From assembly GCA_043822685.1 (NCBI GenBank), contig JBDRBL010000003.1, positions 4,659 to 68,658 on the forward strand: a DNA stretch of 64,000 nt, read 5' to 3'. The stretch's first letter is position 1. Every line of letters starts with the position of its first letter. The notes below the pieces were generated by a model. The model was not told where the DNA came from. It saw only the letters and a program-made list of their open reading frames with translations, and made no database searches. The DNA is from Candidatus Shapirobacteria bacterium (GTDB taxonomy: Bacteria > Patescibacteriota > Microgenomatia > PFEM01 > JBDRBL01). A program made the position numbers and the translations under genes. This document shows, piece by piece, positions 9,199-34,926 of the stretch.

Positions 9199-10169
9199 TT
9201 AAGATTGGCATTAATGGCTTTGGGCGGATCGGTCGAGTCGTGCTCCGCGCGATTTTGGAGCGTTATTCTGATCAAATTGAAGTTGTGCTGATCAATGCCT
9301 CCGATTCGATGACTCAAGCCGGCTGGTTACATCTTTTAAAACATGATTCGGTTTATGGTCTTTTTTCCAAAGGGGTAGCGATTCCTTTTTCTTTTCAACG
9401 TGATCCGGCTCTGATTCCCTGGCAGGATTTCGGAGTTCAGGTGGTTTTGGAATGTACCGGGGCCTTCCGTAATAAAGAGGCCTTGGAAGCCCATCTTCGC
9501 GGCAACAATCTTAAGGTTGTTGTTTCTGCTCCGGCCAAGGGAGTAGAAACTTATGTTTTGGGAGTCAATGATCAAAATTATCAAGGGGCTAAAATTATCA
9601 GTAACGCCTCCTGTACTACTAACTGTATTGCCCCGATCACTAAAATTGTCTGGGATAATTTAGGGATTCAAAAAGCGATTATGAGCACGGCACACGCGGT
9701 TACGGCCGATCAGGAATTGGTGGACGGTTCAAATAAAGATTGGCGTCGGGCTCGATCAGCTTTGACCAACGTTGTTCCGACTTCGACCGGGGCGGCAATT
9801 GCTGTCACCGAGGTGTTACCCATGCTAAAAGGTCTTTTTGGCGGGTTGGCTTATCGAGTTCCCGTTAGTTGTGGTTCTTTGGCCGATTTAACTCTTGTTA
9901 CCACCAAACGGACAACCTCAGAGCAGATCAATGAGATTTTTACCATGGCAGCCAAGAATCAATACAAAAATTTGGTTCAGGTAACAGAAGAACAACTGGT
10001 TTCGCATGATATTATTGGTAATCCCGCCTCCGCCATTGTCGATTTAAATTTAACTCAAGTGATTGATGGTGATTTAGTCAAGATAGTTGCTTGGTACGAT
10101 AACGAGTATGGTTATTCTTGCCGTTTAGTCGAAATGGCATTAATGGTAATCGAAAATGACGCGAAGTAA
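9195..10169 (+). CDS. gap: glyceraldehyde-3-phosphate dehydrogenase
   Basis: INGFGRIGR NAD-binding motif; SNASCTTNC active site; WYDNEYGYS. Confidence 0.9.
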   Translation: MIKIGINGFGRIGRVVLRAILERYSDQIEVVLINASDSMTQAGWLHLLKHDSVYGLFSKGVAIPFSFQRDPALIPWQDFGVQVVLECTGAFRNKEALEAHLRGNNLKVVVSAPAKGVETYVLGVNDQNYQGAKIISNASCTTNCIAPITKIVWDNLGIQKAIMSTAHAVTADQELVDGSNKDWRRARSALTNVVPTSTGAAIAVTEVLPMLKGLFGGLAYRVPVSCGSLADLTLVTTKRTTSEQINEIFTMAAKNQYKNLVQVTEEQLVSHDIIGNPASAIVDLNLTQVIDGDLVKIVAWYDNEYGYSCRLVEMALMVIENDAK

Positions 10170-10839
10170 ACTGGCCAGTTATCTTGATTTGGCGAATCAT
10201 CATGCCAATGCTGTCCCTGACGACATTAAAAAGCTTTGTGATGATGTTAAAAAATTTGGTTTTCACACTGCCTTTGTTAATCCTTGTTATATTGGTTTGG
10301 TTCGCGAGTGCCTTTTTGACAGCAGAAGCAAGATTGGAACGGTTATTGCCTTTCCTTTGGGCCAAGAAACGAGTGAGATCAAAAATATTGCTACTCTTGG
10401 CGCGGTTAACGAAGGCGCTGATGAGTTGGATATCTGTATGAATGTTGGTCTTTTTAAAGCCGGCAAGTTTACTGTGGTCAGAAACGAAATGCGCAAACTT
10501 GTAGATACCGCCAAAAGCTTTAAACCCAAGACGGTCGTTAAGTTTATTATTGAAACCGGTTATCTGACCGGTGATGAAATTCGTAAAGCCTCTCAGTTGG
10601 TTGTTGAGTCAGGCGCCGATTTTGTTAAGACTTGTTCCGGGTTGGGGCCGCGTGGGGCCAAATTAGAAGACGTTTCTCTAATCAAGGGAGTGGTAGGAGA
10701 CAAAGTGAAGATCAAAGTCGCAGGGGGGATTACCACTCTCCAGCAGGTGAAGGATTTCCTCGATTGGGGTGCGGATAGGATCGGCACTTCTCATGCGGTG
10801 GAGATTTATAACGAATTCTTAAAAACAAGTCAAAAATAA
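10156..10839 (+). CDS. deoC: deoxyribose-phosphate aldolase (DeoC family)
   Basis: FVKTCSGLG Schiff-base lysine region, KVAGGITT, FVNPCYI. Confidence 0.7.
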   Translation: MTRSKLASYLDLANHHANAVPDDIKKLCDDVKKFGFHTAFVNPCYIGLVRECLFDSRSKIGTVIAFPLGQETSEIKNIATLGAVNEGADELDICMNVGLFKAGKFTVVRNEMRKLVDTAKSFKPKTVVKFIIETGYLTGDEIRKASQLVVESGADFVKTCSGLGPRGAKLEDVSLIKGVVGDKVKIKVAGGITTLQQVKDFLDWGADRIGTSHAVEIYNEFLKTSQK

Positions 10840-24538: not shown

Positions 24539-25231
24539 ATGAGAATTGCTGGGTATTTAAGAACTTCGCTCATTGAGTGGCCGGGGAAGATCAGCAGTGT
24601 CATTTTTACGCCCGGGTGTAATTTTGCCTGTCCCTTTTGTCATAACGCGGATCTAGTGAGGAACAAGGGAACGCAGGAAATTAGTGAACAGTCGGTTTTG
24701 GAAGATTTGAAGAAGCGGAAAAAATGGATCGATGGCGTGGTGATTACCGGTGGAGAGCCGACGCTTCAGCCGGATCTGCCTGAATTTATCGCCAAAGTAA
24801 AAAAATTGGGTTTTGAAATAATGCTGGAGACAAATGGCAGTTTACCCCAAAACCTTCAAAAAACGCTTCCACTTCTTGATTATTTATCGCTGGATTTTAA
24901 GACAAGATTTGAGGACTACTCCAAAGTGGTCAGAAATAAAAATTTTGATGTTAGAGATTGGCAAAAAAGTCTGCGCTTAATAATTGCGGCCCAAATCCCT
25001 TTTGAAATCCGTACGACAGTTGTACCAACAATTCACAATCAGCAAGTTTTAGTCGCCATGGCCCAAGAATTATCTAAACAACTAGCTTGTTCTACTTGGT
25101 TCTGGCAATCTTTTGTTCCCCAAAACTGTTTGGACAAATCTTTTCTCAAAATCAAACCCCATCCCGTGACCGAGTTAGAAACTCTTGCCCGCCAAGCGAA
25201 AAATTTTTACTCCGAAATTAAAATTAAATAA
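24539..25231 (+). CDS. nrdG: anaerobic RNR activating protein (radical SAM)
   Basis: CNFACPFCHN radical-SAM cysteine motif; position downstream of nrdD. Confidence 0.8.
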   Translation: MRIAGYLRTSLIEWPGKISSVIFTPGCNFACPFCHNADLVRNKGTQEISEQSVLEDLKKRKKWIDGVVITGGEPTLQPDLPEFIAKVKKLGFEIMLETNGSLPQNLQKTLPLLDYLSLDFKTRFEDYSKVVRNKNFDVRDWQKSLRLIIAAQIPFEIRTTVVPTIHNQQVLVAMAQELSKQLACSTWFWQSFVPQNCLDKSFLKIKPHPVTELETLARQAKNFYSEIKIK

Positions 25232-25257: not shown

Positions 25258-25605
25258 ATGGTGAGTGATGAGCGCAAGGATATTCCCAGTGTTGAACCAG
25301 AAACAGTTAAATATACCGAAGTTGAGACGACTCCGGAAATTGGTCCGGAGGTTAAGGATTGGTTGACCCAGCTGGAGCAAGGCGAGGAAATTAAACTGCC
25401 CCAGCCGGTGACCGATGATCAAGGTCAGATTTTGGTGAGCAATGTGGCTCCACAGCAAGTAACGATCACTTTACCTTTAACCGAAGCGGAGATGAGGCGC
25501 GCTCTGCATTTAAAACTAGTTTATGCCGCTCGTTGGTTGGGGGAGCAGATGAACCGGCTGTCGCAAATTATGGGAGGAAGGCTTGTTTATAAATTCAAAA
25601 GTTGA
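25258..25605 (+). CDS. hypothetical protein, acidic
   Basis: ORF track; stop/start overlap with the downstream ATPase gene. Confidence 0.35.
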   Translation: MVSDERKDIPSVEPETVKYTEVETTPEIGPEVKDWLTQLEQGEEIKLPQPVTDDQGQILVSNVAPQQVTITLPLTEAEMRRALHLKLVYAARWLGEQMNRLSQIMGGRLVYKFKS

Positions 25606-27944
25606 ATATGGAATTGATTGACAATTTTCTTAATCGTTTGCTTTCTTGGCTGGTGATTTTAGCGACGGTGGCGCTGGTTGCCGGGGCGTTGGCCTTGGTT
25701 TTTTACGCTTTTTTTGTCTGGTGGAAATATCGTCGTCGCGAAAAACAATCCCTAGAATATTTGATACTTCAAATTGCCGTACCTCATGATAATGAGATTA
25801 AAATTGATGCCGCCGAGCAGATGTTTGCTTCCCTGGCTTCCATAAAAAAAGGTGGCTGGTTTTCTTTTTTACGCCCCCAGCCGCACCTTGCTTTTGAAAT
25901 TTTGGCTAAACACGAGGATATTTGTTTTTATCTTTCGGTTCATCGCAAGATGCGCGATTTGGTGGAAAAACAAATTTATGGTGCCTATCCCGATGCCAAA
26001 TTGCTCGAAGTTGAGGAGCCCACGATTTTTACTCAAAACGGCAAAGTTGCTTTTGCCGAGATGCAGTTTCGCTCGAGTGCCTACCTTCCCCTCAAGGTTT
26101 ACAAAGATCTTCCTACTGACCCTCTTTCGGCGATTACCGCGGTGATGGCCAAGATGGGTGAGGAGGAGGGGGCGGTGATTCAAATTTTAATCTCTCCCGC
26201 CGACGGTAAGTGGAGAAACAAGGGCCATGCTTATGTTTCTCGTATCAAGAAGAACGAAAGTAATCCGGAGAAGGCTAAATTTGCTGTTGACCCCAAGGAT
26301 TTGGAGGCGATTGAGAATAAGTGTTCCAAGCCCGGTTTCAAAACTTACCTGCGTTTTGTTGTCTGCGCCCCCGATTTAGAGCAGGCTAATGCTCATTTAG
26401 GCAATCTTAAAAGCGCCTTTTCTCAATTTGATTCTCATCTTAACAGCTTCAAAAGCAAAAAAACATGGCTTAAGAAATCCTTTATGCTCGACTTTATTTA
26501 TCGCTATCAGCCGCGCTGGACATGGCGTACCAATAGCGCTATTTTAAATTCAGAGGAGTTGGCCACGGTTTTTCACTTGCCTAACAAACAAGTGGAAACG
26601 CCCCACCTGCGCTGGGTTTATTCCAAACGTTCCCCGGCACCGATTAATATTCCCACCGGCGGTTTATTGCTGGGTCGTAATGTTTTTCGCGGGGTTACCC
26701 GGCCGGTCTATCTCACCGACTCCGATCGCCGCCGGCACATCTATATTATTGGCCGTACCGGCGTCGGCAAAACAGAACTAATGCGCGATCTGATTTTGCA
26801 GGATATTCGTTCGGGTAAGGGAGTTTGCCTGATTGATCCTCATGATATTGCCGAGGATATTCTTAATTTTATCCCGCCGGAGAGAGCCGAAGACGTGATT
26901 TATTTTGATCCTTCCGACGAAGAGCGGCCGCTAGGTTTAAATTTACTCGAAGCGCACACTGAACAACAAAAGCACTTTGTGACCACCGGTATTATTAATT
27001 TAATGTATAAGCTTTTTGATCCTTATAAAACAGGAATTGTCGGGCCGCGCTTTGAACACGGAGTGAGAAACGCAATGTTGACGGTCATGTCCGAGCCGGG
27101 GGCTACTTTTATCGAGGTCGTTCGGATTATGACCGATTCCCGTCTGGTCCAGGAATACCTGCCTAAAGTTACCGACGCTATGGTGCGCCGCTATTGGACT
27201 GATCAAATTGCCCAAACCTCTGATTTTCACAAGTCCGAGGTTTTGGACTACACCGTTTCCAAGTTCGGTCGTTTCGTTACCAATAAAATGATGCGGAATA
27301 TCATTGGTCAATCAGAGTCTTCTTTTGATTTCCGCAAAGTTACGGATGAGGGAAAAATCTTGATTATTAATTTGGCTAAAGGTAAATTGGGGGAGGAAAA
27401 TTCTAATTTTTTGGGCCCGATTTTGGTGCCGAAGATTCTTATGGCGGCGATGTCGCGCCAAGACACTCCCGAGGAACAGCGGAAAGACTTTTATTTATAT
27501 GTGGATGAGTTTCAAAACTTTGCCACGCCTGATTTTGCCCAAATTTTGTCCGAGGCGCGCAAGTATCGGCTTAATTTGTGCGTTGCCAACCAATTTATTG
27601 GTCAAATGGAGGAGGAAGTTAAAAACGCGGTTTTTGGCAACGTTGGAACATTGATTTCTTTTAATATTGGGGTCACGGATGCCAACTTTTTGCAGCATTG
27701 GTTTGCACCTACCTTCGGGGAGGATGACCTGATTAACATCGAAAAATATAACGCCTATATCAAAACAATCGTTAAGAGCGAGCCTCAACCGCCTTTCTCG
27801 ATGGATTTATCTAAAGATATGGCGGAACTTAATCGCCAGCGCAATCCACGCGTTTCGGAGATGATCAAACAGCTTTCCCGGCTCAAGTATGGCCGCGCCA
27901 GAGAGGTTGTTGAGGCGCAAATTACCCAGCGGGCAAGATTATAG
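25602..27944 (+). CDS. membrane-anchored P-loop ATPase of the type IV secretion type (VirD4/TraD coupling-protein or VirB4-like; FtsK/HerA superfamily)
   Basis: N-terminal TM; Walker A IGRTGVGKT; Walker B-like YLYVDEFQNF; 780 aa. Confidence 0.5.
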   Translation: MNMELIDNFLNRLLSWLVILATVALVAGALALVFYAFFVWWKYRRREKQSLEYLILQIAVPHDNEIKIDAAEQMFASLASIKKGGWFSFLRPQPHLAFEILAKHEDICFYLSVHRKMRDLVEKQIYGAYPDAKLLEVEEPTIFTQNGKVAFAEMQFRSSAYLPLKVYKDLPTDPLSAITAVMAKMGEEEGAVIQILISPADGKWRNKGHAYVSRIKKNESNPEKAKFAVDPKDLEAIENKCSKPGFKTYLRFVVCAPDLEQANAHLGNLKSAFSQFDSHLNSFKSKKTWLKKSFMLDFIYRYQPRWTWRTNSAILNSEELATVFHLPNKQVETPHLRWVYSKRSPAPINIPTGGLLLGRNVFRGVTRPVYLTDSDRRRHIYIIGRTGVGKTELMRDLILQDIRSGKGVCLIDPHDIAEDILNFIPPERAEDVIYFDPSDEERPLGLNLLEAHTEQQKHFVTTGIINLMYKLFDPYKTGIVGPRFEHGVRNAMLTVMSEPGATFIEVVRIMTDSRLVQEYLPKVTDAMVRRYWTDQIAQTSDFHKSEVLDYTVSKFGRFVTNKMMRNIIGQSESSFDFRKVTDEGKILIINLAKGKLGEENSNFLGPILVPKILMAAMSRQDTPEEQRKDFYLYVDEFQNFATPDFAQILSEARKYRLNLCVANQFIGQMEEEVKNAVFGNVGTLISFNIGVTDANFLQHWFAPTFGEDDLINIEKYNAYIKTIVKSEPQPPFSMDLSKDMAELNRQRNPRVSEMIKQLSRLKYGRAREVVEAQITQRARL

Positions 27945-27962
27945 AACAATTTTTAATCAATT

Positions 27963-27979
27963 CCTGCCTTGCTGGCAGG
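27963..27979 (+). terminator. hairpin CCTGCC-ttgct-GGCAGG after the ATPase gene; possible terminator (U-tract displaced)
   Basis: inverted repeat read from the sequence, followed by an AT-rich region. Confidence 0.3.
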
Positions 27980-28275
27980 CAGGTTAAATATCAAATTTTT
28001 AAACTGTCCGAATAATTTTTAATTCTTTCATAATTTGGTTTGTCATTGTAAAAAACTCATTTTTGGAGAGCAAAGATTTGGATTTTTCGTCTAATTTTTT
28101 CTCAAAATTTTCTCCGATTTTATCAAGATCATGTTTGGTGATGATCATGATTTAATTGAAAGATAATCTCTGGGAGAAGTCAAGATAATTTGTTGCCACT
28201 TTGACAAAGTAGTCATTAGTTGATAAACTGAACAGTAGTAGATAGTTTTTATGGGTTTAGTTTTATTGTTCGATA

Positions 28276-28956
28276 ATGACTCGAGTAATTGATCGGCGTA
28301 AAGCCATCTATTTTCGTCAGCAGGGTAAGACTTACAGTGAAATTAAAAAAGAATTAAATCTTTCCAAAAGCACTCTTTCTGGTTGGTTAAGTAAATATCC
28401 ACTCACTCGAGAACAACTTGAGAAGGTAAAATCTAGAATTAATTTTAAAAAGAATTTGGCTGTTGAAAAATGTCGTCTTACTAAACTAAACAAATGGAAA
28501 AATCGACTTAAACAAACTTATGAAAACGAAAAAAATAGGTTGTTGAATCTGACGGAAAAAGAGTTATATATTGCTGGTTTGTTCTTATATTGGGGAGAAG
28601 GATCAAAAGCAATAAAAAATGCTATTTCTCTTAATAACACTGATCCCAAAGTGGTTAAATTTTATTTATTTTGGCTGACCAAAATTCTCCACTTTGATAG
28701 AAACAAAATTAGAGTTCAAGTTCATCTCTACGATGATATGAATATCAAGCGTTCTTTAGATTACTGGAGCAGGGAATTGAGGATGCCTATGAACCAATTT
28801 GCTAGACCATATATAAAAAAGAGCAAAAGAATTGAGGTTGACCAAAAGGGTTTTGGGCACGGCACTTGTACCTTAAGAATAGGCAACGTTCTTCTTAAGG
28901 AGAAGATTCTTATGGGGATAGAAGCGATTGCTGATCATTATAACCAAAAAATTTGA
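28276..28956 (+). CDS. HTH-domain protein with a C-terminal region weakly resembling a LAGLIDADG endonuclease fold; hypothetical, low GC
   Basis: N-terminal GKTYSEIKKELNLSKSTLSGWL HTH; YIAGLFLYWGEGSK resembles a LAGLIDADG motif with an insertion; AT-rich codon usage. Confidence 0.35.
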   Translation: MTRVIDRRKAIYFRQQGKTYSEIKKELNLSKSTLSGWLSKYPLTREQLEKVKSRINFKKNLAVEKCRLTKLNKWKNRLKQTYENEKNRLLNLTEKELYIAGLFLYWGEGSKAIKNAISLNNTDPKVVKFYLFWLTKILHFDRNKIRVQVHLYDDMNIKRSLDYWSRELRMPMNQFARPYIKKSKRIEVDQKGFGHGTCTLRIGNVLLKEKILMGIEAIADHYNQKI

Positions 28957-28971
28957 TAAAATACGCTTTAG

Positions 28972-29044
28972 GGGGCGGTAGCTCAATGGTGGAGCGGCAT
29001 CCTTATAAGATGAAGGCTTGATGGTTCGAATCCATCCCGCCCCA
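28972..29044 (+). tRNA. tRNA with UAU anticodon (reads AUA; Ile)
   Basis: manual cloverleaf fold: 7-bp acceptor GGGGCGG/CCGCCCC, D-stem GCTC/GAGC, anticodon loop CUUAUAA, T-arm GATGG-TTCGAAT-CCATC, discriminator A; a G27-A43 mismatch and a 6-nt variable loop make the fold imperfect. Confidence 0.65.
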
Positions 29045-29056
29045 CAGAAATGGATT

Positions 29057-29135
29057 TTTCGGCGAGTCAGAGATGGCGCTCGCCGCGCCCGCTCCCGCCC
29101 CCCCCCACACGCAGCGCTACCTTCACGCTCGGCCT
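29057..29135. repeat. GC-rich element A with an internal hairpin; imperfect direct repeat of element B at 30075-30125
   Basis: shares GGCGAG-N4-5-AGATGGCGC, TCGCCGCGC and GCGCTACCTT blocks with element B; GC-rich in an otherwise AT-rich stretch. Confidence 0.4.
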
Positions 29136-29404
29136 TCAGTCTCGTAAAAAGTCGGCTCGGTCAGTCCTTTCTTAAAAAGAAATGATCTCAAAGAAAAACG
29201 CAAAAATTTTAAAGAACTAAATCGATAAACTTTAAAGGCGCAACCGGTGGAACCAACTAAGAATCGCTTCTTGTTGTCCGATTGCGCCATTGAAAAAGCG
29301 ATTCCCTAAAAGTTGGTTCCAAATATCAATATACCAAATTCCTAAGGATTTTGGTATACTCATTTCAATATAAGTACAAGTTTAGAAAGAGAGGAGGTGA
29401 AAAT

Positions 29405-29986
29405 ATGCAAGAAGCTAGCAATAAAGAGCCTGTCAACAGTAATTTAGGCGATATTTTACAAAGGTCGCGTGGCGAGACCGATGCTGCTTTGAATGCAAAG
29501 GAGGTAGCAGAACAAGCTGAGCGAGATAGACAATCGGCAATTGATCAAGCATTGAGAAATATGGTTAGCAATAAGGACTTATTAAAATTTCTCAAGGCAA
29601 GAGATAAAGCGGTTACCTTGGTAGAGGGTAAACAGAAAACAGTTAATGCAGGAAAACCACTTGTAGAAATTACTGGTAATGGAAGAATAATAATTTCCCA
29701 CAGGAATTGGAAGGACGGAAGTGTCAGGGCAACTGATAGTTATGGGCTTGTCGATGTCAACGACCCAAATAGTAGAGTAAACTCTGACCAAATGGAGTAT
29801 CTTAATAGATTTGTTGTGGATGGAAAAGCGTTTATATTAAAATCTACAAGCAGTGCAATTAGTCCTAAAGTAGGTGATTTCCTTGCAGCAACCTATTTAG
29901 GTAATGATGTTTTGGGAACAAATATAACTGCAGACCATATAAGCCGATCGCTGACAGCAGGGGTTACAGAGCTCGCTAATAAGTAA
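29405..29986 (+). CDS. hypothetical protein (193 aa), low-GC, apparently strongly expressed orphan
   Basis: start reassigned to the ATG at 29405 preceded by a very strong SD AGAGGAGGTGA and a TG-extended -10 TGGTATACT; no signal peptide; flanked by elements A and B. Confidence 0.5.
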   Translation: MQEASNKEPVNSNLGDILQRSRGETDAALNAKEVAEQAERDRQSAIDQALRNMVSNKDLLKFLKARDKAVTLVEGKQKTVNAGKPLVEITGNGRIIISHRNWKDGSVRATDSYGLVDVNDPNSRVNSDQMEYLNRFVVDGKAFILKSTSSAISPKVGDFLAATYLGNDVLGTNITADHISRSLTAGVTELANK

Positions 29987-30074
29987 GTGAAATTATTAAA
30001 ACTCGGCGGAGCCGAGCAAAAATCGCGCGCGAAACATAAGCGAGGCCGAAGGCCCCTCCAGAGGCGGGCAGGCG

Positions 30075-30125
30075 AGCGTGAAGATGGCGCGGCGAGTGGG
30101 CGGCGGCACTCGCCGCGCTACCTTT
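30075..30125. repeat. GC-rich element B with a perfect 10-bp hairpin (GCGCGGCGAG...CTCGCCGCGC); partner of element A
   Basis: direct sequence comparison with 29057-29135. Confidence 0.4.
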
Positions 30126-30166
30126 GAAACTCAGTTCGAATTTTTTCGTAAAGAGTCCACTCCGTT

Positions 30167-31036
30167 TTACAACTCTTCCAATTTGACGTTTTCTTTGACC
30201 TTGTTCTCCACCAGTTTTAAGTATTTTTCGGTGGTGGAAAGCCTTTTGTGGCCAACCAGTTGCTGCAAAGTTACCACTGGGGCTCCGGCCGCCAACTGGT
30301 GAGCAATAAAAGTGTGCCGCAAGTCATTAACCGTGGCATTTTTGACTTCTGCGATTCGGAAGTAGCGATCAATGGCGGCTCTGATATTGCGCACCAGCAA
30401 TTGTTTGCCGGTTTTGGTTACAAAGATACTCTGACACTTTGCCATCGACCGATGGTTTAAGTATTTTTCCAGCGCTTTTTTGACTGAATCGTTTAATGGG
30501 ACGAGCCTTTCTTGGTGTCCTTCAAACGGCCGAACTCTCAAGCGATTTTCTTGCACATCAGCCAATTCCAGCCTCGCCAGCTCACTGATTCGTAAACCTG
30601 TTTGCAGTAAAATTTCAATTACGGCGGCTATTCGGACATCTCCTCGTGCCGCATCTCGTAAGGCTCGATATTCCATTTTGGATAACACTCTGGGTGCTTT
30701 TGATTCATAGCGCGGATAGGCCACCGTCTGGGTTGGATTTTCGCGAATTACTCCTTGTTGGGTTAAAAATCGAAAAAAAGTTTTGATTGAATTTAACTTT
30801 CGAGAAATTGATTTGGCAATGTATTTCTTTTGCGTGAGATCTTTTTTAAACTCTTCGATTGTTGCCGCGGTTACCTGGTCGACCTTGTCGATTTCTTTAG
30901 CCGCCAGAAATTTATTCAACTGCTCAACATCTTTTCCGTATGCTAAAATAGTTGCTGAAGCGCGGCCCTGTTTTTTTAGTTCGCTAACAAAGTTATTTTG
31001 GGCAACTATTAATAATACTTTCTCGTTTTCGTTCAT
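30167..31036 (-). CDS. tyrosine site-specific recombinase (XerC/XerD / phage-integrase family)
   Basis: C-terminal catalytic LRHTFIAHQL...GHKRLSTTEKY (R..HxxR..Y) and an N-terminal SAM-like domain. Confidence 0.8.
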   Translation of the reverse strand: MNENEKVLLIVAQNNFVSELKKQGRASATILAYGKDVEQLNKFLAAKEIDKVDQVTAATIEEFKKDLTQKKYIAKSISRKLNSIKTFFRFLTQQGVIRENPTQTVAYPRYESKAPRVLSKMEYRALRDAARGDVRIAAVIEILLQTGLRISELARLELADVQENRLRVRPFEGHQERLVPLNDSVKKALEKYLNHRSMAKCQSIFVTKTGKQLLVRNIRAAIDRYFRIAEVKNATVNDLRHTFIAHQLAAGAPVVTLQQLVGHKRLSTTEKYLKLVENKVKENVKLEEL

Positions 31037-31095
31037 GAAGTTGCAAGCAGTTGGCCCATAATAACACCGAGAGGGTTGGCTGTCAATTGGAAAAA

Positions 31096-31434
31096 ATGAA
31101 GCGTTTGATCAAATATATTATTTTTTTTGGCGGTATTGTCGTAATTATTGGCTTGTCAAAAGATATTCTGCGCTTGCTTAAAGTGGGAGACGAAGTTAAA
31201 ATTGCCGAGCAAAAAGTTTTTGACTTAAAGCAAAAAAATCAGGAACTCAAAGCGCAACTGGACTACTACCAGTCTGATGAGTTTGTGGAAAAAGAAGCTC
31301 GCAATAAGCTCAACTTGGTTCGTCCGGGTGAAACGATTATTGTTTTACCTCTTGATTACGGCGGAAAAGCCTCTTCCTTTGAACATCCTGACCCGCCCAA
31401 TTATCTCAAATGGTGGCGATTGTTTTTTGAGTAG
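31096..31434 (+). CDS. septum formation initiator FtsB/DivIC family
   Basis: TM + coiled coil + EARNKLNLVRPGE motif; start taken at the internal ATG 31096 (MKRLIKY). Confidence 0.6.
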   Translation: MKRLIKYIIFFGGIVVIIGLSKDILRLLKVGDEVKIAEQKVFDLKQKNQELKAQLDYYQSDEFVEKEARNKLNLVRPGETIIVLPLDYGGKASSFEHPDPPNYLKWWRLFFE

Positions 31435-33039: not shown

Positions 33040-34926
33040 ATGGCCAGGAAAAATCACCCTAAAATTAAGCCTAAAGTTCTCAAGAAGTTTGAATTTCGCC
33101 TGCGTTTTAATCTTAAAAACTTATTAACTTGGGGTTTGGTGGCTTTTTTAGTGCTTTCCTTTTTGGCCTCGGCTTCGAGCATGCCCTCGGCGCCAAAAAT
33201 TCCTCTGTCGCAGGCCCTGCAGGATATTAAGGATCAGAAGATCGAAAAGATTGAAGTCGAAGATGGCAGATTGAACCTAACTTATAAGGATGGTCAAACC
33301 TTGGTGGCCCAGAAGGAAACCGGCGTGGCTTTTACTGAAGTTCTTAAATCAGTGGAGATCTCGCCGGAGACGGTTAATTTTACGATTAAAGACATTGGCC
33401 TTTCTAAACTTTGGCTGGATTTGATCTCCAATGTTTTACCGATTATCTTGATGGTGCTATTTTTCTTTTTTATTTATCGTCAGGCACGGGGAGCGCAAGA
33501 TTCAATCTTTTCTTTTGGCCGCTCGCCGGCGCGGATGTTTATCCGCAACGGGAAACAACCCAAAATTACCTTTAAAGATGTCGCCGGAGTGGATGAGGCG
33601 AAAAAGGAGTTAACCGAAGTAGTCGATTTTTTGAAGAATACGGAGAAATACAAGAAGCTGGGCGCGCGCACTCCCAAAGGGGTTTTGTTGGTAGGTCCGT
33701 CGGGAACAGGTAAAACTTTGCTGGCCAAAGCGGTAGCGGGTGAGGCGAATGTACCCTTTTTTAGCATGGCCGGCTCGGAATTTATGGAGATGTTGGTGGG
33801 GGTTGGCGCCAGCAGGGTGCGCGATCTGTTTAATACCGCCAAAAAAGCCGCCCCTTCAATTATTTTTATTGATGAGATCGATGCGATTGGCCGTCAGCGG
33901 GCGACCGGTGTTTTTTCCGGTGGTCATGATGAGCGAGAGCAGACTCTTAACCAAATTTTGGTGTAGATGGATGGTTTTACCACTCAAGATAATGTCATGG
34001 TAGTGGCGGCTACCAATCGCGGCGATCTTTTGGATTCGGCTCTTTTGCGTCCCGGCCGCTTTGACCGACGGGTGGTTTTGGATTTGCCGGATGTTGAAGG
34101 CAGGCAGGCGATTTTGAAAATTCATGGTCAAGGGAAGGTTTTTGCTCAAGACATTAATTGGGGTTCAATCGCTAAACAAACAGTGGGTTTTTCCGGGGCG
34201 GATTTGGAAAACATGCTTAATGAGGCGGCTATTTTTGCGGCGGGGGCCAATAAAACGGCCATCGAGGAAAAAGATATTCGCGAGGCTTCGGTTAAGGTTA
34301 AACTGGGACCGGAACGCAAACGCCTGCAATCGGTTGATGATCGAAAAATGACGGCTTACCACGAGGCCGGTCATGCTCTAGTGAGTTTTTGTTCGCCGCA
34401 GACTGACCCGGTGCGCCGGGTTTCCATTGTGGCGCGGGGTATGAGTTTGGGGCACACCATGATGTCCCCAATCAAAGATCGGACCCATGAGACCAAGACT
34501 CGATTGGAAGAGCAGATTAGCGTGATGATGGGTGGCCGGGCTGCCGAGCAATTAATTTTCAAAGAGATGACTACCGGAGCGGCTAATGATATTGCGAGCG
34601 CAACGAAGTTGGCGCGGGCGATGGTGGTTAATTTTGGCATGAGTCATTTGGGACCGGTTTATTTGGGGTCACAGAGTGAAGAAGGGGAGATGGGCCGGAT
34701 GTTGTGGTATGAGCCGGCCAATCTTTCCCCACAAATGCAGGCTAAGATTGATGCAGAGATTAAAAAAATTACCGATACCGCTTATCGGCGCGCCGTGACG
34801 ATTTTAAAATCGCATCGAATACAAATGGATACTCTGGCCAAAGCCTTGTTGGAAAAAGAAACGCTGGAAGAAGAAGAGTTTGAGAAAATAATGAAAGTCG
34901 AGAATGAAGCGCTTGGTTCTCATTGA
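33040..34926 (+). pseudogene. ftsH: ATP-dependent zinc metalloprotease FtsH interrupted by an in-frame TAG at the conserved Glu of LLVEMDGF (two ORFs, 33040-33966 and 33967-34926)
   Basis: both ORFs are in the same frame; ...[25 protein letters not shown]...; Walker [19 protein letters not shown] zinc motif. Confidence 0.6.

Follow-up and report, generated by a model that had tools for sequence, protein, structure and literature searches.

Does the DNA between a TraD-like ATPase gene (DUF8128) and an FtsB gene in a Candidatus Shapirobacteria (Patescibacteria) contig represent one mobile island, or did its unusual genes arrive separately? The window, the 64-kb stretch of DNA that we analysed, contains at this point a gene for a 226-residue protein, a tRNA(UAU) gene, an orphan gene bracketed by GC-rich elements and a gene for a tyrosine recombinase. 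An earlier note on this sequence read them as a single foreign island of low GC content, and all the features that it listed lie where it placed them. The explanation that we favour, with a probability of roughly 0.6, is that of a recombination-prone slot filled in layers (a homing endonuclease-like gene with its tRNA, and an orphan cassette), next to an Xer recombinase that is resident in the chromosome. The 226-residue protein is identical to one recorded from a Candidatus Shapirobacteria contig.

A variable slot and its neighbouring recombinase

The slot extends from the stop of the DUF8128 gene to that of the Xer gene (27945–30166), and its borders are two convergent, conserved genes that end at 27944 and 30167, respectively. 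The order DUF8128, 226-residue protein, tRNA-Ile(UAU), variable segment, Xer (minus strand) and FtsB recurs in about 30 genomes. Among relatives, the slot is either empty, occupied by tRNA-Ile(UAU) alone, or filled with the gene for the 226-residue protein, the tRNA and other cargo. Where it is empty (L116, L159 and L184), the stops of the DUF8128 and Xer genes directly adjoin each other. The spacer between tRNA and Xer varies from 14 to 2599 nt and measures merely 14–23 nt in several relatives. The synteny comparison proposed in the earlier note thus revealed differing slot occupancy rather than one gene order free of indels, and these several states bear out its view that the segment between the ATPase and recombinase genes is variable and prone to insertion.

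The GC content is 0.30–0.37 across 27750–28999, compared with 0.44 in the whole window. The proposed low GC content therefore holds for this part but not for the region as a whole, which also includes, in the elements L and R described below, the two 60-nt stretches with the highest GC content of the entire window (0.82 and 0.78). We conclude that separate insertions built up the region, which is not one island but a patchwork of at least three independent layers. One is an AT-rich spacer containing a small ORF, another the gene for the 226-residue protein together with the tRNA, and a third the orphan cassette. The AT-rich spacer (27945–28275, GC 0.29) lies between the DUF8128 stop and the gene for the 226-residue protein, and its counterpart in L001 is just 81 nt long. 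It contains a hairpin, CCTGCCTTGCTGGCAGGCAGG (27963–27983), a 49-residue ORF on the minus strand (27999–28148) that has a homolog in none of the loci compared, and a promoter-like site that reads TTGACA-17-TAAACT with a TG ahead of it (28201–28229). The palindrome CCTGCCTGCCGGCAGGCAGG is found again in other Microgenomates loci.

The 289-residue Xer-type tyrosine recombinase (30167–31036, minus strand) forms the right border of the slot, lies outside it and is divergent from the FtsB/DivIC-like gene (31051–31434, plus strand). It matches Pfam Phage_integrase (E = 6.6e-29) and Phage_int_SAM_1, the SAM-like N-terminal domain, and resembles XerC/XerD and the single recombinases XerA, XerH and XerS in its SAM-like and catalytic domains, its motifs and its position by a cell-division gene. 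It differs from XerC/XerD in scoring below every NCBIfam equivalog cut-off, even with the models that fit it best (XerD, 180 versus 330 bits; XerC, 179 versus 335; XerA, 166 versus 220) and in having Asn for the first His of H-x-x-R, a replacement that, in our own reading of the motif, occurs in at least 90% of orthologs. The motifs LQTG.RI.E, VNDLR and GHKR.STTE.Y are kept in 30 orthologs, with the catalytic Arg, Arg, His and Tyr motifs conserved. This is the one Xer gene in the 64-kb window, and about 30 genomes spanning several Microgenomates lineages share its location, in which it converges on the upstream genes and has ftsB as its next neighbour. The protein is a conserved resident chromosomal Xer next to ftsB and not an integrase or cargo of an island. 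The earlier note had counted it among the island's contents and offered a housekeeping Xer as the alternative; in view of the conserved position and motifs, the alternative is the better reading.

These data bear on a scenario in which a tRNA-linked island is moved by the adjacent tyrosine recombinase, with L and R serving as attL and attR or as dif-like sites of an Xer-using element. The recombinase does abut the variable slot, and remnants of the tRNA 3′ end are present downstream of tRNA-Ile(UAU) in relatives (L123, L016, L021 and L027), including a duplicate 3′ half about 155 nt downstream in L123 and two fragments in L016. Integrase-type events therefore do occur at this tRNA gene. However, the recombinase and ftsB stay put in the genomes compared whatever fills the slot, even when it is empty; the window holds no duplicate of the tRNA 3′ end at up to three mismatches, as the earlier note had also found; and the 14–23-nt spacers of relatives leave no room for a resident dif between tRNA and Xer. 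An integron had already been discounted from the gene order, and rightly so: the recombinase scores 84 bits with the IntI-type model TIGR02249 (cut-off 265) and 40 with PRK15417 (cut-off 435), and inspection of L and R by eye revealed no attC core sites (RYYYAAC or GTTRRRY). Movement by the adjacent recombinase appears very unlikely to us, and the arrangement of L and R, discussed below, also argues against it.

A predicted LAGLIDADG-like protein beside tRNA genes

The gene at 28276–28956 (plus strand), which is without annotation on record, encodes the 226-residue protein, here termed HTH226. An N-terminal homeodomain-like HTH is followed by a long helix and one predicted LAGLIDADG-like domain (motif GLFLYWGEGSK). 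In the AlphaFold2 model (pLDDT 87.5), the predicted core fold is alpha-beta-beta-alpha-beta-beta-alpha, the order required of a LAGLIDADG homing endonuclease, which agrees with the resemblance that the earlier note had seen in the C terminus. Within GLFLYWGEG, residues G107, E108 and G109 are invariant in 30 family sequences, and E108 is the last residue of helix 94–108 in the model, giving the expected acidic residue followed by Gly. Profile searches recognize the HTH: all 30 members scanned match HTH models alone, with no match to Pfam LAGLIDADG_1/2/3 or to the NCBIfam LAGLIDADG models, and searching PDB sequences with the family profile likewise returned HTH matches alone.

The LAGLIDADG homing endonucleases I-CreI, I-DmoI, I-CeuI and I-Tsp061I are encoded in introns or inteins. 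In contrast, the HTH226 gene is free-standing. Its product carries in addition an HTH and a long linker helix, escapes the Pfam LAGLIDADG models, and differs in a motif that is two residues longer and in an extra helix that the model places between the strands. The transcription factor WhiA (DUF199) of Gram-positive bacteria, which is of LAGLIDADG descent, is the product of a conserved core gene. Its two LAGLIDADG domains are degenerate, with the motif's acidic residue lost, and precede a C-terminal HTH. We ruled out that HTH226 is a WhiA because it has one domain, an N-terminal HTH, a retained acidic residue and a sporadic distribution.

The most informative feature of the region, absent from the earlier note, is the strict pairing of the HTH226 family with tRNA genes. 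In the window, the gene is followed by tRNA-Ile with anticodon UAU (28972–29045, plus strand), whose identification in that note is confirmed by ARAGORN and Rfam (64.4 bits). A same-strand tRNA-Ile(UAU) lies directly 3′ of the gene at 78 of the 80 genome loci carrying it, and one of the two exceptions is truncated where its contig stops. A median of 24 nt (range −3 to 109) separates the stop codon from the tRNA. Second, more distant family members in the same genome loci are located directly 5′ of tRNA-Met(CAU), tRNA-Gly(GCC) or tRNA-Arg(CCU) in eight of nine cases, and extra family copies on L125 and L155 are likewise directly upstream of a tRNA. Relatives on viral contigs share 24–38% identity with HTH226 over the best segment, and most are near full length with the same motifs. 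tRNA genes are found within 4 kb at 22 of 23 such viral loci and within about 110 nt of the relative's gene at some 16 of the 18 from which ORFs were extracted; distant relatives are encoded within tRNA arrays of huge phages. Both in these phages and in ultra-small bacteria, family members almost always adjoin a tRNA gene.

A known system with a similar arrangement is SegB of phage T4, a free-standing homing endonuclease that is encoded in the phage tRNA gene cluster and promotes preferred inheritance of the tRNA region (PMC2330249). Both are stand-alone, nuclease-type genes among or beside tRNA genes, present in some related genomes and absent in others, and preferred inheritance of this kind matches the sharp local divergence that we observe over the HTH226 gene and its tRNA. 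Unlike SegB, which is a GIY-YIG enzyme (PMC2330249), HTH226 combines a predicted LAGLIDADG-like domain with an N-terminal HTH, and its gene also occurs in cellular genomes (Patescibacteria), at a fixed address 5′ of tRNA-Ile(UAU). The tRNA genes of Patescibacteria attract other mobile insertions, as illustrated by group I introns at position 35/36 (PMC13011429). The tRNA-Ile(UAU) gene of L166 is interrupted at this same position, but the insert consists of a GC-rich stem and a second tRNA and is not a group I intron. The HTH226 gene lies outside the tRNA, unlike those introns, and no free-standing gene of its kind is reported in that study (PMC13011429).

Presence, absence and divergence of the HTH226 gene

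We compared 80 metagenome loci anchored on DUF8128: tRNA-Ile(UAU) stands without the HTH226 gene in 32, the gene lies directly upstream of the tRNA in 7 (6 distinct), and in none does the gene occur without a tRNA. About 80% of comparable loci carrying this tRNA lack the gene. L060 and L123, whose tRNAs are 97% identical, differ by an indel of about 750 nt that contains the gene, and the copies in L125 and L082 are broken. Collinear genomes thus display unpolarised presence and absence at one fixed site together with degenerate copies, which is how free-standing homing endonuclease genes behave. Divergence is equally local: between L030 and L040, DNA identity is 81–91% over DUF8128, Xer and FtsB and 50–67% exactly over the HTH226 gene and the tRNA, and HTH226 proteins are 0.54–0.68 identical where DUF8128 shows 0.86–0.95. 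At 81 of 82 loci, the GC content of the gene is below that of its flanks. Some distant genomes have closer copies of the gene in common, and HTH226 identity correlates weakly with that of the flanking proteins, for which fast local evolution is an alternative cause. HTH226 identity also tracks the tRNA sequence weakly (Spearman 0.13–0.18; in a test of T-arm classes, the observed value was reached in 26 of 500 permutations), so that gene and tRNA would not necessarily move strictly together. The tRNA-Ile(UAU) gene is variable even among loci without the HTH226 gene and is on average modestly more variable than tRNA-Met (0.72 versus 0.79, 9 pairs).

Fold prediction, conservation, tRNA linkage, presence and absence, local divergence, phage relatives and synteny together suggest that the HTH226 gene behaves like a free-standing LAGLIDADG-type homing endonuclease gene, and from sequence and model we infer nuclease activity of its product. 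The single LAGLIDADG-like domain, with the invariant Glu closing the motif helix, would presumably function as a homodimer, and the N-terminal HTH would add DNA recognition. Such an enzyme may cut gene-less alleles at the tRNA-Ile(UAU) gene or beside it, and repair would then copy the HTH226 gene into the cut chromosome at its fixed address, immediately 5′ of the tRNA gene and on the same strand, often with co-conversion of the adjacent tRNA allele. This cut-and-copy mechanism would rationalize the presence/absence pattern, the sharp divergence of the segment between close genomes and the degenerate copies.

HTH226 might instead be no nuclease but a domesticated DNA-binding regulator akin to WhiA, or else an RNA-binding maturase, that controls the transcription or maturation of the adjacent tRNA, in which case the linkage would reflect a shared function, perhaps a feedback loop via AUA codons. 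An HTH is present, and almost every copy is intact, of constant length and with about 45 invariant residues, as one would expect of a host function but equally of a selfish gene that is active. An extended −10-like element, TGaTAAAAT (28954–28962, plus strand), overlaps the HTH226 stop, ends 9 nt before the tRNA and, judging from its sequence, is likely the tRNA's own promoter; a TGnTAnnnT-like element is present about 12 nt (median) 5′ of tRNA-Ile(UAU) at 43 of 79 related loci. The overlap of this element with the end of the gene would suit a regulator, as would the gene's richness in AUA, the codon read by tRNA-Ile(UAU): AUA accounts for 0.385 of its Ile codons compared with 0.223 in flanking ORFs, and is higher at 72 of 78 loci. 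However, the AUA excess is not confined to certain codon positions, and part of it goes with the lower GC3 of the gene. A regulator or maturase is also difficult to reconcile with the many tRNA-Ile(UAU) loci that lack the gene, with its presence in only one of L060 and L123, and with the broken copies. Moreover, the gene is far more divergent than its flanks, with a similarity pattern that disagrees with theirs, the acidic residue of the motif is invariant in the family, and WhiA differs in domain order and number. We consider such a role unlikely and favour the homing endonuclease-like gene.

The orphan gene and its GC-rich borders

The 193-residue orphan ORF (29405–29986, plus strand) encodes a protein with a long N-terminal helix, a beta-sheet and a C-terminal helix. 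Its leader (29146–29404, plus strand) contains a long hairpin (29248–29321, z −2.9), a palindrome (29325–29363) that overlaps an extended −10, TG-n-TATACT (29352–29360), and a Shine–Dalgarno sequence, AGAGGAGGTGA (29390–29400). The strong Shine–Dalgarno sequence and extended −10 had been recognized previously, but the protein does not lack homology as had been proposed: five distant homologs with 31–38% identity were found among 1.84 billion representatives, and a word-indexed search returned no match but the protein itself. The homologs occupy unrelated intergenic sites among housekeeping genes (hflX/obg; rpsG/fusA beside a DUF559 endonuclease gene), where they are without inverted repeats. 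The orphan gene is a lineage-specific insertion. A hairpin, CTCGGCGGAGCCGAG (30002–30016, minus strand), is terminator-like for transcription of the Xer gene because a T-run follows it on the minus strand.

The left element L (29057–29145) is C-rich, with a GC content of 0.71 overall and 0.82 at its peak, and the right element R (30030–30137) is G-rich, with a 14-bp-stem hairpin at about 30085–30120. The relatedness of these elements is real: a 29-nt pattern is confined to the two sites in the window and has 0 matches in 100 shuffles. Yet they are not the direct repeats that had been described, but mainly complementary, and thus inverted, over about 85 nt; short collinear direct matches exist because parts of both elements are palindromic. 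These direct matches and the near-perfect 28-bp palindrome of R, with its 11-6-11 layout, are what the scenario of a recombinase-driven island could draw on. The predominantly inverted arrangement speaks against it, as does the finding that neither a second copy nor a counterpart of the elements exists in about 190 related loci.

The complementarity also invites the idea that the pair acts in RNA, as a processing or stabilizing L:R stem around the orphan mRNA, or that L and R are the arms of an older hairpin split by the orphan gene. Read-through from the strong tRNA promoter would give an L:R transcript, with a stem like those flanking rRNAs. The calculated L:R duplex energy of −94.5 kcal/mol, compared with −70 ± 6 for 300 mononucleotide shuffles (0/300 reach it), fits this idea, as do the poor folding of the C-rich L alone (z +1.9) next to a G-rich R, and the small hairpins that some relatives have between tRNA and Xer; so high a GC content, in a genome with 44% GC, suggests that stable pairing is under selection. 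However, the orphan promoter is downstream of L, so the main orphan transcript would be without it. No Rfam family matches, the single example of the pair offers no covariation to read, and long hairpins are absent from this site in the relatives. An RNA stem or a split hairpin therefore seems quite unlikely.

Within the layered slot that we favour, the segment of about 1.08 kb at 29062–30139, which carries the orphan gene with its own putative promoter and strong ribosome-binding site, would be a separate, nested insertion that resembles a transposon and lies between the tRNA gene and the stop of the Xer gene. Its bounds would be GC-rich inverted repeats of about 85 nt, imperfect but with the strong L:R pairing calculated above, and a possible 8–9-bp duplication. 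Inspection of the sequence revealed ATTTTT(T)CG on both sides of the cassette, as ATTTTTCG (29054–29061) and ATTTTTTCG (30140–30148); the pair is a possible target-site duplication, and could also have arisen by chance in T-rich DNA. Measured against transposons and MITEs, the cassette has the inverted repeats and perhaps the duplication, is present in a single copy, and contains no transposase gene that we could find. The sequences flanking the GC-rich core of R are contiguous in another genome (L124, 9926–9965), and removing the cassette in silico leaves a spacer of about 36 nt, compared with the 14–23 nt of several relatives.

A layered slot bordered by a resident Xer recombinase

The slot at 27945-30166 opens at the stop codon of a 780-aa DUF8128/TraD-like ATPase gene (25602-27944), itself preceded by a radical-SAM activase-like gene (24539-25231) and a 115-aa gene (25258-25605). 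It holds an AT-rich spacer (27945-28275), the gene for a 226-aa helix-turn-helix (HTH) protein (28276-28956, + strand), tRNA-Ile(UAU) (28972-29045), the GC-rich element L (29057-29145), a 193-aa orphan gene (29405-29986, + strand) and the GC-rich element R (30030-30137). It closes at the stop codon of an Xer-type recombinase gene (30167-31036, − strand), followed by the FtsB/DivIC gene (31051-31434, + strand) and, further downstream, two tRNA(CAU) genes, tRNA-Trp and TrpRS. All items listed in the earlier note are present in the window, and its impression of foreign gene content agrees with the variability of the slot among relatives. Its proposal of one island does not hold: the slot is genuinely variable and layered. 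Searches against Rfam, at gathering and at permissive thresholds, returned tRNAs as the sole matches, both for the window and for the surroundings of the orphan's homolog.

The evidence supports the recombinase being a resident Xer that borders the slot, rather than its engine or cargo. The gene order in L001, a locus from a Shapirobacteria relative, is DUF8128, 226-aa gene, tRNA-Ile(UAU), NUDIX gene, Xer (− strand), FtsB. An opposite-strand Xer gene downstream of the tRNA and followed by FtsB recurs in about 30 of 80 genome loci, from several Microgenomates lineages. The distance from tRNA to Xer stop ranges from 14 to 2599 nt among relatives. The active-site motifs are kept in 30 orthologs, and the 64-kb window contains one Xer. 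Because position, FtsB partner and motifs are conserved, and because integron integrase models clearly fail on the recombinase, we favour the alternative that the earlier note had allowed for, a housekeeping Xer adjoining ftsB. The same model failure rules out an integron, as the earlier note had concluded from the arrangement, and our search of the window for a duplicated tRNA 3′ end was likewise negative. A dif site between tRNA and Xer gene is unlikely, since several relatives have just 14-23 nt there. In annotation, the gene should be labelled a resident Xer rather than an island integrase.

The DUF8128 protein, whose P-loop motifs are TraD/VirD4-like, is matched by phrog_5156 (E 7e-92) and by the PADLOC model mad8 (E 2e-18), and is highly conserved across Microgenomates (74% mean column identity). 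The hairpin at 27963-27983, described earlier as terminator-like, is a variant of the 20-nt perfect palindrome CCTGCCTGCCGGCAGGCAGG. This palindrome recurs on several Microgenomates contigs (L013 at 301 and 1722, L121 at 4703, L128 at 3591 and L140 at 2038) and is therefore a repeated intergenic element.

A protein family positioned 5′ of tRNA genes

The notable result of the slot analysis is the tRNA-linked family of the 226-aa protein, which combines an HTH with a LAGLIDADG-like domain. More than 1000 homologs were returned; the best 120 of these measure 222-254 aa, at 52-62% identity, and a 30-sequence alignment has about 45 invariant columns. Curated libraries match the N-terminal HTH alone, and no curated protein model covers the C-terminal domain of the family. 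The single-motif LAGLIDADG domain proposed in the earlier note is backed by the predicted fold but not by sequence models. The motif GLFLYWGEG lies at the end of helix 94-108, and its invariant terminal Glu occupies what we take to be the expected spot of the LAGLIDADG catalytic acid. Our searches of the literature retrieved no description of the family, and it goes unmentioned in a recent survey of Patescibacteria tRNA introns (PMC13011429). Exact look-ups of the orphan, Xer and 226-aa proteins gave no record in the contig index. A 226-aa protein identical to that of the window is recorded from a 74.7-kb Candidatus Shapirobacteria contig. Apart from it, the closest 226-aa protein is 62% identical, and the collections contain no near-identical strain offering an empty site at base level.

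The family obeys a simple rule, which is its position directly 5′ of a tRNA gene. In 78 of the 80 genome loci, which include metagenome-assembled genomes (MAGs) labelled Microgenomates, Parcubacteria and Doudnabacteria, tRNA-Ile(UAU) lies downstream of the 226-aa gene on the same strand, with a median gap of 24 nt; a contig end explains one of the exceptions. Overall, at least 285 Patescibacteria species genomes, as well as huge phages, carry family members immediately upstream of a tRNA gene. The rule extends to second, more distant members, eight of nine being immediately upstream of tRNA-Met(CAU), tRNA-Gly(GCC) or tRNA-Arg(CCU). Such members, on the same contigs as the first copy, are at L027 9466-10167, L047 9614-10306, L021 9231-9935 (− strand), L032 8855-9568 (− strand), L045 9640-10404, L072 3160-3786 and L063 11591-12244. 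The extra copies at L155 12752-13447 and L125 11844-12604 (frameshifted) are likewise directly upstream of a tRNA gene. Relatives on viral contigs (mostly 84-527 kb) sit within tRNA arrays and share the architecture and the LYWGEG.K motif at 24-38% identity in the best segment.

Co-transcription is not the obvious cause of this linkage, since in many loci the short spacer between gene and tRNA contains a separate extended −10-like element. Co-variation of the 226-aa protein with the T-arm class of the tRNA is weak. The adjacent tRNA-Ile(UAU) reads AUA, a codon enriched in the 226-aa gene: its share of Ile codons is 0.385 there versus 0.223 in flanking ORFs, and it is higher than in the flanks in 72 of 78 loci. 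The window copy uses AUA for 4 of 17 Ile codons, compared with 6.8% in long ORFs. This excess tracks lower GC3 in part, and we found no conserved AUA positions in the gene. The orphan gene has AUA at 5 of 10 Ile codons.

Separately, L001 contains a 95-aa GIY-YIG gene (10104-10391) between two tRNA(CAU) genes whose window counterparts are 73 nt apart, a further nuclease-type gene lodged among tRNA genes.

Sporadic presence and a possible homing module

To survey presence independently of the 226-aa gene, we fetched 80 metagenome loci via DUF8128. Of these, 32 carry tRNA-Ile(UAU) but not the gene, in 7 (6 distinct) the gene lies immediately upstream of the tRNA, and in none does the gene occur without a tRNA. 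In L117, which lacks the gene, 20 nt separate the DUF8128 stop from the tRNA and 48 nt separate the tRNA from the Xer stop. In L116, L159 and L184 the entire slot is empty, the stops of DUF8128 and Xer touching or overlapping. The loci L060 and L123, whose tRNAs are 97% identical, are set apart by an indel of roughly 750 nt that contains the 226-aa gene, and L125 and L082 carry broken copies. Between L030 and L040, DNA identity is 81-91% over DUF8128, Xer and FtsB and falls to 50-67% exactly across the 226-aa gene and tRNA; the 226-aa proteins are 54% identical, compared with 92% for DUF8128. The L030 copy is nearer to that of L013 (73%), although L013 is more distant. GC content of the gene falls below that of the flanking sequence in 81 of 82 loci. 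Together, presence and absence, indel, broken copies, identity dip and low GC point to a free-standing homing endonuclease gene, of which sporadic presence and local hyper-divergence would be the expected marks. A known analogue of this behaviour is T4 SegB, in a phage tRNA cluster (PMC2330249). Some observations limit this reading: the tRNA is variable even among loci without the 226-aa gene, its variability is just modestly above that of tRNA-Met, and similarity of the 226-aa protein correlates weakly with that of the tRNA. If active as nucleases, these proteins would provide a new and compact scaffold of the LAGLIDADG type, equipped with an accessory HTH and directed naturally at tRNA loci. 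The tRNA genes of very small genomes would then be hot spots for selfish genes, in addition to the known rRNA and tRNA introns.

It is also conceivable, though we consider it improbable, that the tRNA itself is mobile cargo, the 226-aa gene and tRNA-Ile(UAU) forming a homing module that targets resident tRNA genes at their conserved anticodon region. Such a module would spread or replace the AUA-decoding tRNA among Patescibacteria and phages, and a selfish nuclease family would thereby shape the decoding-tRNA repertoire of reduced genomes. Its footprints would be a tRNA inside a tRNA and the stranded tRNA 3′ halves that follow many tRNA-Ile(UAU) genes. The former occurs in L166 (3601-3779; JGI metagenome contig Ga0172379_10039585), where 104 nt interrupt tRNA-Ile(UAU) within the anticodon, at CTTA|TAA (position 35/36). 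They consist of an 11-bp GC-rich inverted repeat (CCCGCCTGCCG / CGGCGGGCAGG) around a complete second tRNA-Ile(UAU) gene; when joined, the outer halves form a valid cloverleaf. Fragments resembling 3′ halves of other tRNA-Ile(UAU) alleles lie downstream of the intact tRNA, in the tRNA-to-Xer spacers, in L016, L021, L027, L012, L023, L013, L032 and L039; one example, CCCAAGCAGACGCAC, exactly matches the L075 tRNA at its 3′ end. A fragment at L123 4562-4592 resembles the 3′ half of another tRNA-Ile(UAU) allele. Independently of the module reading, the downstream fragments suggest repeated integration or replacement events at tRNA-Ile(UAU).

A further disrupted tRNA 5′ fragment apparently lies immediately upstream of the nested tRNA in L166, and GGCGGGCAGG of this locus is also found in R, at 30063 of the window.

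The orphan cassette and its GC-rich elements

The two GC-rich elements that the earlier note described as direct repeats are both present but mainly complementary: the L:R duplex energy is −94.5 kcal/mol versus −70 ± 6 for shuffles, and short direct matches arise because L and R are partly palindromic. The orphan gene is enclosed by imperfect inverted repeats, GC-rich and about 85 nt long, which are flanked in turn by the short repeat ATTTTTCG (29054-29061) and ATTTTTTCG (30140-30148); this repeat may be due to chance. With 29062-30139 taken out, the spacer measures about 36 nt, compared with 14-23 nt in several relatives. The AT-rich sequences flanking the GC-rich core of R are contiguous in L124 (9926-9965), and the core itself therefore looks inserted. 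We read the cassette, with limited confidence, as a transposon-like insertion in its own right that carries a passenger gene. Searches yielded no second cassette copy and no transposase, and neither the window nor about 190 loci contain a further L or R; the sole recurring part is the AT-rich outer flank of R, in L124 and L131. Alternatively, the complementarity of L and R could possibly reflect a long-range RNA stem or an older hairpin split in two.

The orphan protein has five distant homologs in all, located at unrelated sites: an hflX/obg gap, a toxin-antitoxin-rich stretch and an rpsG/fusA gap. Of the three homologs with DNA read, two possess a strong ribosome-binding site. The fold of the orphan protein is predicted confidently (pLDDT 86) but has no convincing structural match. 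At the rpsG/fusA site (L090 4542-5480), the homolog is accompanied by a DUF559 (Vsr-like endonuclease) gene, and the str operon is conserved apart from this insertion.

The AT-rich motif (T)TTGAAA..AGTCCGAATTTTTTCGTAAAGAGTCCAC just outside R (30121-30160) recurs on Microgenomates contigs beside unrelated genes (L124 9939-9962 and 10715-10754; L131 8382-8411), those in L124 having no relation to recombination. In L034 (4135-4248), from another Patescibacteria MAG, GC-rich hairpins downstream of tRNA-Ile(UAU) share the decamer CTCGCCGCGC with L and R. The contig stops there; contig ends at repeats are frequent. The stretch 29248-29363, upstream of the orphan gene, contains a stable long hairpin (z −2.9) and, across the −10 element, a 19+19-nt palindrome that may be an operator. 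Outside the slot, the ftsH frame is broken by an in-frame TAG (33964-33966, ...NQILV*MDGF...), a single G-to-T change from GAG at a position where a conserved Glu is presumably expected; possible explanations are a sequencing error, a pseudogene and read-through.
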